Below, piece after piece: positions 26,910 through 58,942 of a DNA stretch of 64,000 nucleotides. Where the stretch lies: the IMG/VR virus record IMGVR_UViG_3300035497_000162, positions 32,001-96,000 of that record; one strand, given 5' to 3'. Source of the stretch: a virus (lineage: Duplodnaviria > Caudoviricetes). The notes below the pieces were generated by a model. It searched no databases and was not told the origin of the DNA. It saw only the letters and a list, made by a program, of their open reading frames with translations. Numbering within the stretch: position 1 is the first letter of the stretch; each line of letters begins with the position of its first letter. Position numbers and translations under genes: made by a program.

Positions 26910-28226
26910 ATGGCAAAAGAAATAAAATCTATAGAAGATTTATCTTCTGAGTTTAATTTATGGAATGAAGAGCCAAAAATAGTGAAATTAAAAAATCCAA
27001 TATTAAATGGAATGTTTCATGGAGGATTACCTCTAGGTAGTGTTATACAAATAGCTGCTCAATCTGGAGTAGGTAAATCTACTTTAGCTATACAAATTTC
27101 TAAGGAACTGTGTGAACTTGGATATAAAGTATCTTATATAGATGCAGAAAAGGGTTTAAACGTAAACATGTTAAAATCTACTGGTATTTATAAATTCGTA
27201 CATAGTAAAAATAATCCAGATGGAACTTTTTCTATACTTAGAATAAATGATTGTACCCAAGTAAACCTTGCTATACAACAGTTAAGTAATAATAAATTAG
27301 TAGATGTAGTAATACTAGATAGTTTAGGTTCATTAGATTCTGGTTTATATAAAGAAGGTGGAGTAGAAGCTGATAATCCTAAAGTAGGAGCTGATACTAA
27401 AAGTTTAAAGATTATTATGAAAACTATGAATTCTATGGCTATAAGTAATAATACTACTTTTATTTTTATAAATCATTTAGCTCAGTCTATAGGTACTTAT
27501 ATACCTACAGAAAGCCCTACAGGGGGTAGAGCCCCTATTTATCTTTCTGACATTATAATAAAGCTAACTAAAAAATCTAGTGATTTTGAAAAATTAAGAC
27601 TAGGACAGAAAGTAGAATATGAAGCTATGAAATCTAGATTTGGTCCTGGAAAGTCTAAAATGCCTTTTTATATTTTCTATGGCCAAGGTATTTGTTTAGC
27701 TCCTACTTATCGAGAATTTATAGACCAAGTAGATACTATTTATAAAGGTAAACCTCATAAATTAGTAGAATTAAGAGGTGCTGGTAACGGCTCTATGTTT
27801 ATTAATGATGAAGAAGTTAAATTTAGAGGCGAAAACCAACTTATGAATTTAATAGGTAAAAATTTAAAAGAAATTATGAGGATTGTTCCAGAAGATGTAT
27901 TTATTGTAAAACCTCCAGAATTACCTGATTATATAAAGTCTAGTATAGATACTGAAAAAGCTGTTTATAATGAATTAGAATTACCAGATAAATTTAAAGA
28001 TTTAGAAATATTATATAGTAGTGGTACTAAAGTATATTTTCATAAAGGAATAGATCCTACAGGTCAAGAATATAGTTTATCTTATGATATAGCTAAGGAT
28101 AAACTAATACTAAATATGGATGGTATAGAAGATACTATTAAATCTCCTAGTAAAGAAGATTATAATAGTAATTTAGAAGTACTTAATAATTATTTGGATA
28201 AAACTAAAAAAGAAATGGAGTCTTAG
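26910..28226 (+). CDS. recA: RecA/UvsX-like recombinase
   Basis: GGLPLG, Walker A AQSGVGKST, YIDAE, ILDSLG, FINH, PTGGRA. Confidence 0.9.
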   Translation: MAKEIKSIEDLSSEFNLWNEEPKIVKLKNPILNGMFHGGLPLGSVIQIAAQSGVGKSTLAIQISKELCELGYKVSYIDAEKGLNVNMLKSTGIYKFVHSKNNPDGTFSILRINDCTQVNLAIQQLSNNKLVDVVILDSLGSLDSGLYKEGGVEADNPKVGADTKSLKIIMKTMNSMAISNNTTFIFINHLAQSIGTYIPTESPTGGRAPIYLSDIIIKLTKKSSDFEKLRLGQKVEYEAMKSRFGPGKSKMPFYIFYGQGICLAPTYREFIDQVDTIYKGKPHKLVELRGAGNGSMFINDEEVKFRGENQLMNLIGKNLKEIMRIVPEDVFIVKPPELPDYIKSSIDTEKAVYNELELPDKFKDLEILYSSGTKVYFHKGIDPTGQEYSLSYDIAKDKLILNMDGIEDTIKSPSKEDYNSNLEVLNNYLDKTKKEMES

Positions 28227-28352
28227 AATTATAATTTAGATATATGAAATTTTAATCAGAATGAAGATATAGACATTTTAATATTAAAGTAATGAAATTA
28301 TATTACTTAGTATATAAAGCGTCTTAAAATTCATTCTAATAAGGAGTAATTT

Positions 28353-29540
28353 ATGAATTTTAAAGTAAACATAAAAGATTATCAAATTATCAAAAAAGCA
28401 TCTTTAGAGTTTATACCAGGGCTTAATGTAATAGTAGGTCCTAGTAATAATGGAAAATCTAGTATTTTGAAAGCTATAAAAGCTTGTATTTATACTGTAC
28501 CTGGAGCTAATCCTATTAGGGCAGGACAAAATCAATACTTAGTAGGTATAGAATATAATGGTCATACTGTAATATTACAAAAAGGACTTAAAGAGTCCGT
28601 TTATATAGTAGATGGAGAAAAGTATACTAAATATGGAACTACTACTCCAAAGGTTGTATCAGATGCTTTAGGTTTAAAGGAGTTAGTATTAAATAATAAT
28701 AAAGAAATATTAAATTATTGGAATCAGATGGATTATCCTTTTTTAATAGACAGAACTTCAGTGGAGTTATTTAGGTTTATAGTAGACTCTGGAGAAAATG
28801 ATAGAGTATCAGATGCTTTAAAAAGCATGGTATCTGATAGGCAGTCTATTTCAAAAGATATTAATTTAATTCAAGGTGGTATAGATACTGTAGACTTAGA
28901 AATTAAGTCTTATAAGGACAAATTAGATAAATCTAAAGAAATTATTGATACGTGTAATAGTATTATAAAATTACAACCTTTGGTAGCTAAATTAAACTTA
29001 ATGAAAAATATTAAGGAGTCTTGCTCTAAAATATTATCAGATTTATCTAAAACAAATGAAGAATTAGTTAAAAAATCTAATATTTTAGATATTTATACTA
29101 ATTTCAATAAATCTATTACAGGAAATAATAATAAATATTGTGCTTTAGTAGATAAATTTAATATATTACGTTCTATTATAGAAAATTTATCTACTGTAGA
29201 ATCTAAAATTAATTCATTAAAAATTATTTTAAGCTTATCTTCAATAGACACATCAGGATTAAATTTAAGGAAAGAAATTTTAAATAAGATAAATTATATT
29301 AATAATGAATTAAAATCTCTTAAATCTCAACCTAGTGCTAAATTTGATATATCTAATGATACTATTGAAAGGTATTTTAATTTAAAAAATATAAAAGATA
29401 AATTAATAGATTTTGATAATCAAAAAATAAGATTAGAAGATAGTAAATTAAATTGTGATAATAGCATAGAATTATATAAGGAATTAAAATTACTTTTTGA
29501 TTTTTGCCCTTATTGTGGTAGTGGGCTATCAACTACCTAA
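28353..29540 (+). CDS. SbcC/Rad50-like ATPase, N-terminal half
   Basis: GPSNNGKSS, coiled coil, terminal CPYC zinc hook. Confidence 0.85.
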   Translation: MNFKVNIKDYQIIKKASLEFIPGLNVIVGPSNNGKSSILKAIKACIYTVPGANPIRAGQNQYLVGIEYNGHTVILQKGLKESVYIVDGEKYTKYGTTTPKVVSDALGLKELVLNNNKEILNYWNQMDYPFLIDRTSVELFRFIVDSGENDRVSDALKSMVSDRQSISKDINLIQGGIDTVDLEIKSYKDKLDKSKEIIDTCNSIIKLQPLVAKLNLMKNIKESCSKILSDLSKTNEELVKKSNILDIYTNFNKSITGNNNKYCALVDKFNILRSIIENLSTVESKINSLKIILSLSSIDTSGLNLRKEILNKINYINNELKSLKSQPSAKFDISNDTIERYFNLKNIKDKLIDFDNQKIRLEDSKLNCDNSIELYKELKLLFDFCPYCGSGLSTT

Positions 29541-29634
29541 AGGAAAGAACAAAGAATTTAAATCACTAGGGTTTGAATTAAATGAAGTGGTTTATACCTT
29601 GTAATAAAACTATTGCGGTAATGAACTTTATTAA
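29539..29634 (+). mobile_element. collapsed guide cassette 8: cargo-gene remnant, mini scaffold, guide equal to the old sbcC 3' end
   Basis: 29539-29583 resembles the 3' end of gene 57144-57980; GAAGTGGTTTATACCTT-GTAATAAAAC at 29584-29610; then TATTGCGGTAATGAACTTTATTAA. Confidence 0.75.
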
Positions 29635-29649
29635 AAGAAAGGAGATATT

Positions 29650-29955
29650 ATGTATTTAGAAACTTTAATTAGTAAATCTAAAGAAGAAATGAAACCTTGG
29701 TTAGATTCTATTTCAGATTCTGAAAAGAAAATTTTATTTTCTGAAATAGAACAGAAAAAGAAATCTGCTGAGGAAGAATTTATTAGAATTGAAACTACTA
29801 AGAAAAAACTAGAGGAAGATGAACAAGAACAAATGCAAAAATTATCTGAACTTGGAATTTTTTCTTATGTGGATTTAGAAACTGAAATTAAAAAGTTAGA
29901 AGATAGTATTAATGAAGAGCTTATAAAATATGCAGAAATATTGAAAGGAGAATAG
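29650..29955 (+). CDS. coiled-coil protein
   Basis: RBS, 101 aa, between the SbcC halves. Confidence 0.7.
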   Translation: MYLETLISKSKEEMKPWLDSISDSEKKILFSEIEQKKKSAEEEFIRIETTKKKLEEDEQEQMQKLSELGIFSYVDLETEIKKLEDSINEELIKYAEILKGE

Positions 29956-29956
29956 C

Positions 29957-30595
29957 ATGATAGATAATTATAATGCTTTATATAATAAGGCTATTCAAAT
30001 TAAAAGTAAATATGATACTATTCAAAATCAGTTAGATAATAGGATAGAATACAAAAAAGAACTTGTAAATAAGCTAGAAGATACTATACATACACAAACT
30101 ACTTATGAAAAAGCAATATCTTACATGAAAGAAATTATAGATGCTTTATCTAGAACTCATATAAATCATTTAGAAAAATTATTAAATTCAGCAGTAGAAA
30201 CTATATTTTTTGATAAAGTTTATAGAATAGAGTTTGAAGTATCAGAATATAGAAATTCAAACAATCTCACTATCTATCTTATAGAAACTTTAGAAGATGG
30301 GTCAGAAATTAAAACAGATATAAAAGATAATGGATTTGGTATTAAAACAATAATAGGTTTTATACTTCAAGTATATTTTATCATCTACAATAAGTTAAGC
30401 CCTATATTATTTATAGACGAGGGATTTTCTTCTCTCAGTCAAGTATATATACCTTATTTAAAAAGCTTATTAGATTCTTTAAAAGAAAAATATGGTTTTA
30501 TATTTGTTTTAGTAGCTCATGACCCTAGATTTATAGATTTAGCAGATAAAACATATGAAGTAAAGAATGGTGAAGTAAAACTTAAAATATTATAG
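29957..30595 (+). CDS. SbcC/Rad50-like ATPase, C-terminal half
   Basis: Signature NGFG, Walker B LFIDEGFSSL, H-loop VAHD. Confidence 0.85.
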   Translation: MIDNYNALYNKAIQIKSKYDTIQNQLDNRIEYKKELVNKLEDTIHTQTTYEKAISYMKEIIDALSRTHINHLEKLLNSAVETIFFDKVYRIEFEVSEYRNSNNLTIYLIETLEDGSEIKTDIKDNGFGIKTIIGFILQVYFIIYNKLSPILFIDEGFSSLSQVYIPYLKSLLDSLKEKYGFIFVLVAHDPRFIDLADKTYEVKNGEVKLKIL

Positions 30596-30612: not shown

Positions 30613-32744
30613 ATGACTTATGAAGAATTAATACAAAAAGAACAAGACCGACAAGATAATAATGTAGAATTAATCGCTAGTGAAAATTTTTGTAGTAAAA
30701 GAATAAGAGAAGCTTGTGGTAGTATATTAACCAATAAGTATTCAGAGCGGTTATCCAGGAAAGAGATATTATGGTGGTTGTAAATATATAGATGAAATAG
30801 AATCTAAGGTAATAGAAGATGCTTGTAAATTATTTAATTGTAAATATGCTAATGTTCAACCTCATTGTGGTAGTTCAGCTAATCAAGCTGTATTTAGAGC
30901 TTTTTTAAATTATGGAGATACTGTACTTAGTATGAATTTAGGAGCTGGAGGTTTGTGTTAGACTGGCTTCCCTAGTATAGTGATATACTAGACAATAACC
31001 CAGAATATGCTGGAATCCCCTGAGAGCTTAAATTAGTAGTTACTATTAGAAATTTTAGTAATATCTGAAAATATTTAAGATTGGGCAATCAGCAGAGATA
31101 GACCTAAGTTCTTTGTGGAATATGGTAAGCTCTCAACGACTATCAATGGGTAACTTTAAAATTAAGGAGGAAATATGTATATTTACTCAATTAGTGATAG
31201 TAGAAATAATATTTATATTGGTAAAACAAGTAATATAAAGAATAGAATTTATACACATAAATCTAAGTCTAAATATAGTAATACAAAGCTATATAGATGG
31301 ATAAGAAATGTAGGTTGGAGCACTTTAAAAGTAACTAAAATTTGTGAGTGTTCAATGGAAGAATCATTTAATTTGGAAATAGAATATATTAAACTCTATG
31401 AAAGTAAAGGATTTAATTTATTAAATGAACAGCATAATAGTCAATATGAACCTGCATTAAATTTTAATAAAAGGATTTTTAATAAAGATGAAATCTGGAA
31501 AGATTATTTAAACGGCAAAGGTAGAGTAGAAATTTGTTTAAGTTATGGAATATCAGATTCTATGTTGTCTAAAATAATTTCAGAAAATGGCGGAATTAAC
31601 AGAATTAGCAAATTAGAGCCATACTTTAAAGAAATACAAGATAGTATAATACAAGGTGTTCCAATTAGGAAACTTGCTAGAAAATATAATGTGTGTAAAA
31701 ATTCAATATCAAATATAAATAAGGGCATAACTGCATATGACCCAAACTTAAATTATCCCTTAAATAAAAGTTAAAGGTATAGTCTGCTCTTATACAAAAG
31801 TATAAGCTAACAAAATGCACTTAACACATGGTCACAAAATGTCATTTAGTGGACAAGATTATAATATTATATCATATGGATTAGATAAAGATGGTATTAT
31901 TAATTATAATGATTTTGTTACTAAATTGTACGAATATAATCCAAAGATAGTAATTATTGGAGCTAGTTCATATTCTAGAATAATAGACTATAAATTCTTT
32001 AAAAATATATTAGATAAATATAAAGAGGATAAAGGAGAATGTCCTATATACTTTGTTGATATGGCTCATGTTGCTGGATTAGTTGCAGCTGGAGTACATC
32101 CTAATCCTTGTGATTATGCTGATGTAGTAACTTCAACTACTCATAAAACCTTGAGAGGACCACGCGGAGGTTTAATTTTAACTAATAATGAAGAATATAT
32201 AAAGAAGATTAATAAAGCTGTATTCCCAGGTATACAAGGAGGTCCACTTGAACATATTATAGCAGCTAAAGGAATTTGTTTTGAAGAAGCAATGACTGAT
32301 TATTTCAAGGAATATGGAAAACAAGTAATTAAAAATGCAAAAGCTTTTTCAGATTCTTTTAAAGAGCTAGGTTGGAAAATAATATCAGGTGGAACAGATA
32401 ATCATATGTTTATATTAGATGTTTATAATTCAACTGAGAGAAAATTAACAGGTAAACAAGCAGAAACAGCTTTAGATGAAATTAATATTACAGTTAATAA
32501 AAATCAAATACCAAATGATTCATTACCACCTTTAAAATCTTCTGGAATAAGAATAGGAACTCCAGCTATGACCACTAAAGGATGGAAAGAAAAAGAATTT
32601 AAAGATTTAGCTATTATTATAGATGAATATTTAAAATATTGTATTAAAGAAGAACTTGTAGATGTAACAATTATAAATAGTTATAAAGAAAAAGTATCTA
32701 GTATAATTAGAAGAGTAAATATGAGAGAGGATAATTGGAATTAG
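30613..32744 (+). CDS. glyA: serine hydroxymethyltransferase; exons 30613-30952 and 31818-32744; +1 shift at CGG 30748
   Basis: [27 protein letters not shown]|[34 protein letters not shown]. Confidence 0.93.
30953..31817 (+). ncRNA. group I intron in glyA
   Basis: Exon ends GGAGGU, pairing with IGS GCUUCC; core ATGCTGGAA, AATCAGCAG, TCAACGACTA, GTATAGTCT; terminal G31817; splicing restores GGHLTHG. Confidence 0.9.
31175..31774 (+). CDS. intron-encoded GIY-YIG homing endonuclease
   Basis: YIYSI...IYIGKT...R...E...N, C-terminal HTH repeats. Confidence 0.85.
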   Translation: MYIYSISDSRNNIYIGKTSNIKNRIYTHKSKSKYSNTKLYRWIRNVGWSTLKVTKICECSMEESFNLEIEYIKLYESKGFNLLNEQHNSQYEPALNFNKRIFNKDEIWKDYLNGKGRVEICLSYGISDSMLSKIISENGGINRISKLEPYFKEIQDSIIQGVPIRKLARKYNVCKNSISNINKGITAYDPNLNYPLNKS

Positions 32745-57143: not shown

Positions 57144-57980
57144 ATGCTTGAAAATAAAAGTAGGAAGATTTTAAAAATAGATAAAACACTACCAACTATA
57201 AAGTTACCAGGTAATAAATTACAAATGTTTATTGACTGGTGGAATGAAGATATAAGGTTTGAAAAATCTATACCTCATTCATTTAATGAAGGGTATTTAG
57301 TAATTAGTGGATTAAATAATAATATAAGTTTATCTAGTAAAGAAACTAAAGAAACTATTAGTATTATAGCTAAATCTATGAAAACTACATACAGATATGT
57401 TGAGAATAAGTTTATTGAATTTTTAGATAATATAAGTAATGTAACTATATATTTTAAATTTTTAGATACTAATAAACTATATTTAGAAAGCTATGATATA
57501 TTAAATACATTAATATCAAAGATGACTATTGAATTTGGTGATAGTAAACAATATGAAGATGAACTACTTTTATTTAAAAACATGAATAATTTTGATGATT
57601 TTCTTAATGTTATTAATAAGTCATTATTAGCATTATTAGCTACAAGTTTATGGTATATATCTACAGCTTCTACTAATACTAAATATATTTACGAAAAGAG
57701 TACTCCACAAATATATAAAGATAAAAATACTGTAAAAGTTAAAGTGAATAAAATAATTAAGAATACTATTTATGACTTTAATAAAATTAGATATATTAAA
57801 GTAGATACTCTTAAAACTAGAAAAAGAGGTTGGACTTATTCACATAGTTTTCAAGTACATGGTCATTATAGACATTATAAGAATGGAAAAACTATATTCA
57901 TAGATTCGTATATTAAGGGAAAGAACAAAGAATTTAAAGCACAGACTTTTGAATTAAATCCAGAAAAGATAAAAGATTAA
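57144..57980 (+). CDS. hypothetical protein directly upstream of cassette 7
   Basis: C-terminal FQVHGHYRHYKNGKTIFI..YIKG motif. Confidence 0.75.
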   Translation: MLENKSRKILKIDKTLPTIKLPGNKLQMFIDWWNEDIRFEKSIPHSFNEGYLVISGLNNNISLSSKETKETISIIAKSMKTTYRYVENKFIEFLDNISNVTIYFKFLDTNKLYLESYDILNTLISKMTIEFGDSKQYEDELLLFKNMNNFDDFLNVINKSLLALLATSLWYISTASTNTKYIYEKSTPQIYKDKNTVKVKVNKIIKNTIYDFNKIRYIKVDTLKTRKRGWTYSHSFQVHGHYRHYKNGKTIFIDSYIKGKNKEFKAQTFELNPEKIKD

Positions 57981-57990
57981 ATATAATATT

Positions 57991-58309
57991 GAGGTAGTTT
58001 ATACCTTTAAAGTACATCGTTACTCATATAGAGTTTAGGTGTAAAGTTATGTTATTTGAAGTTTTATATGTATATAAAATAACATAGTAATAAAACAGGG
58101 CTTCAATTAAAACACTATTTAACGTTTTATATGTATATAAAATAACATAGTAATAAAACACAAAAGCTGCTATAAAGACACTATTTAACGTTTTATATGT
58201 ATACTAAATAACATAGTAATAAAACATTTAGTAAGAGATTTACACTCTTTCTTTTGTTTTACACATATATAAAATAACATAGTAATAAAACAATAGCATA
58301 CAAGTAAGT
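57991..58309 (+). CRISPR. guide cassette 7: scaffold, 4 repeats, 3 spacers, terminal guide
   Basis: Repeats at 58061, 58124, 58190, 58256; spacers of 27, 30 and 30 nt; terminator about 58315-58345. Confidence 0.93.
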
Positions 58310-58426
58310 ATTAGAAAGATAGTCATAAGTTAGCTATCTTTTATTTTTTTCTAATATTTTATATATAATAATAGAGTATTATTTATAGTAATTTATATAT
58401 GCTCTATTAGAGAGGAGGAAATTAAA

Positions 58427-58942
58427 ATGTCAAATACTTATAATGTAAAAATATCTTTTAAGGGAGAAGGAAATCTTTCTTTTGTTTTACCAGGATATGG
58501 TGAATTAACTATTTATAATAAAAAGGATATTTTTGTTAAAGGATTAACTGTAAATGGAGTAGAAGCTTTAAGACAACTTAGACCTTTATTATTAGACCAT
58601 CAATTAAATGCTAAACCAGATGGATGTTACAAAGTAATAGATTTAACTAATACTAATATAATTACACCTAAAGATTATTTTGAGAGATCTTCTAAAGAGC
58701 CTACTAAATCTGTAGCTGAATTAAAAGCTAGTATGATTAAATCAAATGGTCCTATAATAGAAGAAATAGAAGAAACTCAAGAAGAAATAGAAGAAACTCA
58801 AGAAGAAATAGAAGAAATAGAAGAGATAGAAGAAAGTAAAGAAGAAGAAAATATCGAACCTGAAGTAAAAACACCTAAATCAACTAAACCATCTGCTGCT
58901 AAGACTACAGCTAAAAGACAAACTAAAAGAAAAAAACGCTAG
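58427..58942 (+). CDS. hypothetical virion-module protein with EEIEETQ repeats
   Basis: 171 aa; acidic repeat followed by a basic tail. Confidence 0.7.
   Translation: MSNTYNVKISFKGEGNLSFVLPGYGELTIYNKKDIFVKGLTVNGVEALRQLRPLLLDHQLNAKPDGCYKVIDLTNTNIITPKDYFERSSKEPTKSVAELKASMIKSNGPIIEEIEETQEEIEETQEEIEEIEEIEESKEEENIEPEVKTPKSTKPSAAKTTAKRQTKRKKR

Follow-up and report, generated by a model that had tools for sequence, protein, structure and literature searches.

A probable decayed guide-cassette remnant at the zinc-hook end of a split Rad50-like gene in a TnpB-encoding, T4-like phage

The window that we analyzed, a stretch of 64,000 nt, covers bases 32001–96000 of a 119,730-bp IMG/VR record that is 94% complete; coordinates below are those of the window unless a genome position is indicated. 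All genes of this phage lie on the + strand, the G+C content is 26%, and the phage has capsid and neck genes of T4-like type (Gp23 and gp13 families). The locus under study is the end of a Rad50/SbcC-like gene (28353–29540, + strand; 395 aa, Pfam AAA_23), whose product terminates in CPYCG-SGLSTT. The Rad50/SbcC homologue is distributed over three ORFs (28353–30595), namely an N-terminal half that runs to the zinc hook, a 101-aa coiled coil and a separate 212-aa C-terminal ATPase half (29957–30595), and the Walker A ATPase, the coiled coil and the CxxC zinc hook of the family are all present. The gene had been labelled sbcC in the initial annotation; the family assignment holds, and the label has to be narrowed to the N-terminal half of a split gene. 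Since relatives at 40–54% identity display the identical three-way split, it is a family-wide trait that the insertion described below did not cause. Just past the C-terminal ATPase ORF, the SHMT (glyA) gene at 30613–32744 is interrupted by an ORF for a 199-aa GIY-YIG protein, which is also found in strain L014; the intervening ORF in the glyA gene of strain L011 (L011:5261-7188, compared with L014:2334-4261) encodes 139 aa and carries no GIY-YIG annotation.

Among ~250 homologues of 390–405 aa, the zinc hook CPxCG is located 3–12 residues before the end of the protein (for example CPYCGNPIHS, CPLCGNKIH and CPVCGSKLGGKK, each followed by the stop codon), and residues C385, P386, C388 and G389 are invariant in 20 homologues. 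Between the stop codon and the next ATG, the four nearest relatives have −1, 16, 15 and 18 nt, and this phage has a gap of 109 nt. Measured from the end of a second hook-like segment further downstream, hereafter X2, the gap is 15 nt, and X2 with its TAA and an RBS 15 nt before the ATG has the same arrangement as in L016, L019 and L020. Relative to the family layout, ~100 nt (29511–29610) are extra, and they contain parts of a guide cassette in cassette order. We are therefore highly confident that a real cassette-derived insertion lies in the Rad50 N-half gene, directly 3’ of the hook Pro codon, as had been claimed from the sequence at the outset.

The remnant can be laid out base by base on the + strand from 29508 to 29650. 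The hook Pro codon CCT (29508–29510), which is the proposed TAM, stands 5’ of X1 and, in an empty allele, would stand 5’ of X2. X1 (29511–29540) is exactly 30 nt long and forms the current gene end, YCGSGLSTT plus the stop codon; it probably came with the insertion. A remnant of a gene end (29541–29583) follows, out of frame with the Rad50 ORF, which resembles the last ~14 codons of the gene at 57144. Next to it are the scaffold head GAAGTGGTTTATACCTT (29584–29600), bearing two substitutions and a weakened hairpin, and the last 10 nt of the repeat/scaffold tail GTAATAAAAC (29601–29610), while the ~80-nt structured core between head and tail is absent. X2 (29611–29634; YCGNELY plus the stop codon) starts at the first base past the repeat tail and is probably the original gene end, now displaced. 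The RBS region (29635–29649) leads to the ATG of the next gene at 29650; the RBS and this gene, which encodes the 101-aa coiled-coil piece of the split Rad50, span 29635–29955, and the gene occupies the same place in the gene order of the relatives L015 and L016. Every string named in the initial annotation was found where it had been placed, and the coordinates could be sharpened. The remnant region is unchanged in five further near-identical strain contigs, so that all six contigs are filled, and a blastn search of the locus against phage GenBank returned no match.

The head and tail patterns stand far above background. For the head pattern, 0.26 occurrences would be expected on the + strand of the window and eight are present; the tail pattern, with an expectation of 0.65, occurs 16 times. 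The gene-end fragment aligns over ~43 nt with the end of 57144 and has an exact 21-mer in common with 57918–57938 (blastn E 3e-6 within the genome; recurring 21-mers occupy just 1.9% of genome positions), the order from gene end to head is the same at both places, and the junction between fragment and head is the product expected from a slip between the two ATTAAAT repeats that end 57144. X1 and X2 are identical at 13 of their first 17 bases and then diverge; this DNA likeness is weak by itself, being equalled within 150 nt by 4.8% of random positions. At the peptide level, a scan of all 119,730 nt in the three forward frames gave just three occurrences of the pattern [YVLT]CG[NQSH], among them X1 and X2, which are 100 nt apart. 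A target-site duplication followed by drift was considered for the pair and rejected, as a duplication of 17–24 nt does not fit and the tails differ by indels; to our knowledge, such a duplication is unlike every known TnpB or transposase footprint. X1 also holds a perfect hairpin, GGTAGT-N9-ACTACC, one of two such in the genome.

The candidate effector for the guides, and the only one, is a TnpB-family nuclease of 414 aa (8882–10126, + strand; Pfam OrfB_IS605, Cas12f1-like_TNB and HTH). Its alignment with ISDra2 TnpB (8H1J, 8BF8; E 1e-32) spans the full length of the protein and includes all three acidic residues of the RuvC site (D/E/D). The canonical head/scaffold of ~107 nt has 11 copies in the genome in addition to the remnant. 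Its computed fold has two stems, among them an anti-repeat/repeat duplex, between the head and a single-stranded tail; in the fold of the intact unit, both stems fall in the part missing from the remnant. With the structured core missing, the remnant copy would be unable to form a guide RNA. The scaffolds are usually followed by 36-nt repeats with spacers of 27–30 nt, and the intact cassettes carry true spacers between repeats, so that direct repeats with unique spacers of constant length, as in CRISPR, characterize the intact cassettes and not the remnant. Cas1 (PF01867) is absent from the genome, and profiles for a Y1 HUH TnpA (PF01797) and a serine recombinase (PF00239) matched nothing in the 119.7 kb, while the positive controls matched. 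The closest TnpB, that of L048 (54% identity), sits at the syntenic position in another phage contig; downstream of it are a tracr-like region unlike the one here and seven repeats that share the tail of those in this phage. Because this syntenic nuclease comes with same-tail repeats, the nuclease-plus-array system is older than this phage. As an array, the repeat was not found in 185,579 species-representative genomes, which yielded two chance matches, and a scan of IMG/VR for the repeat tail gave 11 matches, all by chance in coding DNA.

Three further observations concern the cassettes. First, an 18-mer, AACGGCTTAAAAGTTTRG, follows a repeat tail at 8819–8836, just upstream of the TnpB gene, and occurs twice in the array of L048 (L048:4429-4446 and 4532-4549), the 54%-related phage; shared between phages in this way, the pseudo-spacer may play a part in regulation. 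Second, in cassette 44573, the sequence that takes the guide position behind the last repeat (44744–44781) resembles the 3’ part of a tRNA, with a T-arm (GGTTCAAATCC), an acceptor strand and CCA; no 5’ half was found nearby, the tRNA covariance model reported nothing for this piece, and a search for an intact form found none. Third, the stretch between tRNA-Gln and tRNA-Asp contains a degenerate repeat tail (44128–44152), which, with scaffold-like bits near 43905, may be another decayed cassette.

The gene to which the remnant fragment corresponds is part of an intact paralogous unit (57144–58291, + strand), consisting of an AcrVA2-like gene (57144–57980), a scaffold (57991) and a four-repeat array, and its 3’ end adjoins the TnpB guide scaffold. 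Searches of 57144 against a local Pfam library, including a family HMM search, gave nothing, an HMM search of the PDB gave nothing and no AcrVA2 match either, and Foldseek against the PDB also gave nothing. In the Atlas, the cluster nearest to 57144 bears PF26125 (AcrVA2-like) on 14% of its members. When a model of 57144, in which the C-terminal domain is poorly modelled, was compared with 48,161 chains, the crystal structure of AcrVA2 (7ci1_A) ranked first, with 158 aligned residues at an rmsd of 6.3 and a Z score of 5.9, which is below 8; the runner-up reached 4.0. H241, R243 and H244 are invariant in 36 homologues of 57144, and a C-terminal H-x-R motif is required for AcrVA2 activity (bioRxiv 10.1101/2022.11.29.518452). 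These three residues may be the equivalent of that motif, judging by an inferred correspondence of positions, and 57144 is probably a member of the AcrVA2/FinQ family. Homology of the fragment to the end of 57144, which the initial annotation had proposed, is thus upheld by the 21-mer and the ~43-nt alignment, and its description of that gene as generic cargo gives way to a probable AcrVA2-like protein. The remnant would then record an AcrVA2-like gene end that travelled together with the scaffold.

Codon usage bears on which of the two gene ends is the original one. The last seven codons of X1, which include GGG, CTA and ACC, fall in the lowest 0.4% of codon-usage windows among the long ORFs of the genome, and the codon usage of X2 is typical (33rd percentile). 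Since the codons of X1 are atypical and those of X2 are not, X2 is read as native: in our assessment it is quite probably the original gene end, and X1 was brought in, although SGLSTT and NELY are both plausible as tails of a Rad50 N-half. That the original end was displaced to just 3’ of the repeat tail, into the guide position, is probable as claimed earlier, with X2 starting right at 29611. Because the native-looking X2 begins right after the repeat tail, the right end of the mobile unit is set at the last base of the repeat.

Mobility of the cassettes can also be read from other sites. First, strain L041 (Logan) is 99.5% identical to the window over 5.5 kb up to ~57860, ~120 nt short of the end of 57144, beyond which its gene end and its downstream gene differ and both scaffold and array are missing (L041:5360-5645 compared with window 57860–58430). 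This pair is a natural presence/absence polymorphism with a breakpoint inside the gene end. Second, two promoter-type cassettes outside the window, at genome positions 11860 and 28871, have 93 nt of upstream sequence in common, and the first 24 nt of it (G000:C1:11767-11790 and 28762-28785) contain TAG, TAA and TAA, which are stops in three frames. Two genes that are unrelated to each other take their final codons from this 24-mer, each in another reading frame: one at genome 11193–11786 and a DNA methyltransferase gene at 28144–28785. Third, four complete relatives of 120–130 kb lack both TnpB and 57144, and the homologues of 57144 (more than 366) occur mostly in phages of ~200 kb. In the broad sense, the earlier claim that the cassettes are mobile is borne out by these three lines, and cassette insertion and mobility are well supported by the sequence comparisons. 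A second collapsed scaffold, also outside the window (G000:C1:27986-28030), lies in a short gap between genes, ahead of a methyltransferase gene; its head is perfect and the tail behind it degenerate.

Whether the flank served as a guide is a separate matter. The repeat tail abuts X2 exactly at 29610/29611, and CCT, which stands 5’ of X1, would likewise precede X2 if that were uninterrupted; this geometry of a flank-derived guide is real. X1 mismatches a guide made of X2 at positions 6, 11, 14 and 15. CCT occupies 0.58% of genome positions and precedes one other self-protospacer: the spacer at 39961–39990 matches 39192–39221 (+ strand), in the gene adjacent to its own cassette, at 28 of 30 positions, with the mismatches at positions 2–3, in the seed beside CCT. 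The spacer at 45102–45131 likewise matches 1969–1998, at the start of gene 1967–2257, at 28 of 30 positions, and there the 5’ flank is AAT, not CCT. A role of CCT as the TAM is thus only suggested, by the one self-protospacer at 39192. External protospacers for the spacers of this phage and of L048 were absent from all fetched loci and from the genome, so no TAM is derivable from them.

The initial annotation had predicted that an alignment of related phages would reveal empty alleles ending in CPYCGNELY as well as full ones, and neither came to light. IMG/VR scans for a sister-allele spacer and, at the coding level, for an empty allele gave zero matches, and a scan of JGI metagenomes for CPYCGNELY found three unrelated zinc-ribbon genes and no allele of the Rad50 gene. 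With a set of 5.8 billion proteins added, neither an empty nor a full allele was found in any of the three collections, in which this lineage is thinly sampled. An IMG/VR search with the Rad50 protein alone found none, and one with a profile found 11 distant relatives, all without TnpB, 57144 or cassettes. The nearest relatives are only 54% identical, and in them the site is uninterrupted but not allelic. The description of the unit as an IS605 element does not hold either, as the genome has no TnpA. Guidance of the unit by its own flank is a proposal: the empty and full alleles and TnpA are missing, CCT is a putative TAM, and a 10-nt microhomology with the left junction of the cassette, TATTGNGGTA, offers a rival route. 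The Rad50-hook site itself is fixed and dead in all sampled strains. The remnant documents mobility, and that a guide RNA was behind it is possible but less likely than not.

Taking these points together, we propose, as a tentative reading with somewhat less than an even chance of being right in full, that the locus holds a decayed guide-cassette remnant with the 3’ end of an AcrVA2-like gene, inserted after the zinc-hook Pro codon. A relative would have carried the full unit of gene, scaffold and repeat at this site, and in a co-infection the unit would have reached the present lineage, through gene conversion or the repair of a double-strand break. The break would have been made by the phage TnpB, with the flank-derived guide directed against the uninterrupted allele (CCT plus X2). 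It counts against this reading that a flank in the guide position is a matter of geometry: however a unit with the repeat as its right end is inserted, the displaced sequence will border it there. The filled allele would have been spared because X1 differs from the guide at the four positions given above. Subsequent deletions would have removed the scaffold core and the greater part of the gene, and slippage between the ATTAAAT repeats could explain one of these deletions. Arrival by RNA-guided homing, taken on its own, is possible and somewhat doubtful. In a classical IS605 insertion the TAM is separated from the target, and a substitute gene end is not needed. The earlier idea that the insertion supplied a recoded gene end therefore stands insofar as the Rad50 ORF now stops within inserted DNA (X1), whereas under IS605 logic such an end is superfluous.

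The observations could also be explained by short-homology or illegitimate recombination through T4-like machinery without RNA guidance, an explanation that we hold to be unlikely. The hook codons TATTGCGGTA resemble the cassette left junction TATTGAGGTA, and the motif would have been duplicated on both sides, leaving the guide position of X2 as a by-product. The distribution of TATTGNGGTA is as this route would have it, with eight occurrences on the + strand and none on the − strand: X1, X2, the left junctions of five cassettes and a single further site. Over its first 12 nt, X1 agrees with the left junction (11/12) no less well than with X2 (10/12), the hairpin in X1 is head-like, and the phage has no transposase. 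However, when X1 was examined as a degenerate scaffold head, the likeness was not significant past those 12 nt (shuffle p 0.08), and the coding of Y-C-G largely forces TATTGYGG, so that the likeness could be due to chance (estimate ~0.14). Moreover, a crossover in the present junction would create a TGA and truncate the hook, and the right junction presupposes a donor that carries a repeat tail directly next to a cassette junction, and no such pair exists in the genome.

Less probable still, and in our view quite unlikely, X1 may be native, the insertion may comprise 29541–29634 between stop and RBS, and X2 may be a spacer copied from the allele of a sister phage. This would be RNA-guided intronless homing too, with an acquired guide in place of a displaced flank. 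Removal of 29541–29634 restores a normal stop-RBS-ATG spacing, the tails of X1 and X2 both fit the family consensus, and there is a parallel in cassette 39855, which lies 43 nt past its gene and has a spacer against an allele of that gene. The codon usage speaks against it, as does the seamless passage of X2 into TAA and RBS, just as in the relatives; in addition, X2 runs for only 24 nt to the stop, under the 27–30 nt of a spacer, and no closing repeat comes after it. Chance likeness in AT-rich intergenic DNA with no insertion at all is highly improbable: the DNA match of X1 and X2 by itself (p ~0.05) would allow it, but not four independent cassette-like pieces in correct order, a gap of 109 nt against at most 18 nt in relatives, and a duplicated hook peptide.

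Our preferred reading, an insertion that displaced the original gene end into the guide position, would fit into a wider scheme, which we regard as speculative and somewhat unlikely. In it, the T4-like phage would possess an RNA-programmed gene drive, in which one TnpB serves about a dozen dispersed cassettes of scaffold plus mini-array, with guides against sister-phage alleles of neighbouring genes or against the flank in its uninterrupted form; a co-infecting relative, once cut, would be repaired from this genome, so that the cassettes and the adjacent anti-Cas12-like (AcrVA2-family) gene would be copied across, and the Rad50-hook remnant would be the footprint of one such event. The remnant is the only place in the genome where a past insertion boundary is readable base by base; on its own it is a footprint and no proof of guidance. 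If true, the scheme would constitute a new kind of phage-versus-phage weapon.

Several known systems can be compared with that of this phage. The AcrVA2/FinQ family (PDB 7CI1) is common on phages and megaphages (bioRxiv 10.1101/2022.11.29.518452); 57144 and the remnant at 29541–29583 are like it in the best structural match and the conserved H-x-R, and unlike it in that 57144 has no HMM-level match to AcrVA2. Known mini-arrays are likewise short, sit in viral genomes and have spacers against alleles of related phages, whereas they use the repeats and the Cas proteins of the host, and this phage has its own TnpB and a tracr-like scaffold. Homing of TnpB on an empty site has been shown for bacterial insertion sequences (bioRxiv 10.1101/2023.03.14.532601). 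The TnpB-omegaRNA systems of IS200/IS605 elements (ISDra2, G. stearothermophilus; bioRxiv 10.1101/2023.03.14.532601, PMC8612924) are similar in having a TnpB-family nuclease, a scaffold that ends at the right boundary of the unit and a flank as 3’ guide, such that the uninterrupted allele would be the target. In contrast, the phage has neither TnpA nor an LE/RE pair, its scaffold has an anti-repeat and then 36-nt repeats with 27–30 nt spacers, ~12 dispersed copies go with one nuclease, the insertion carries a substitute gene end, and the host is a T4-like phage genome instead of a bacterial chromosome. Intronless homing in T-even phages, by the free-standing endonucleases SegF, SegG and Mob, is guided by protein (PMC13565253). 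As there, self and sister alleles differ by few substitutions in a conserved gene beside the unit, and co-conversion in co-infection leaves mosaic boundaries such as that in L041; here, however, recognition would be by RNA guides, and the nuclease gene is at least 20 kb from most cassettes. TranC, which comprises TnpB-to-Cas12 intermediates (PDB 9JFO, LaTranC), is comparable in its TnpB-sized effector and its split or CRISPR-like guide. The phage TnpB is much nearer to ISDra2 TnpB, with which it aligns over its full length at E 1e-32, than to LaTranC, where the alignment (E 5e-16) is confined to the C-terminal part; its scaffold, unlike that of TranC, is fused to the first repeat, with dispersed copies. 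If the proposed scheme is true, flank guides of the IS605 type and CRISPR spacers would be linked in one system, and a phage system that joins TnpB homing with intronless homing would represent a natural intermediate on the way from transposon omegaRNA to CRISPR.
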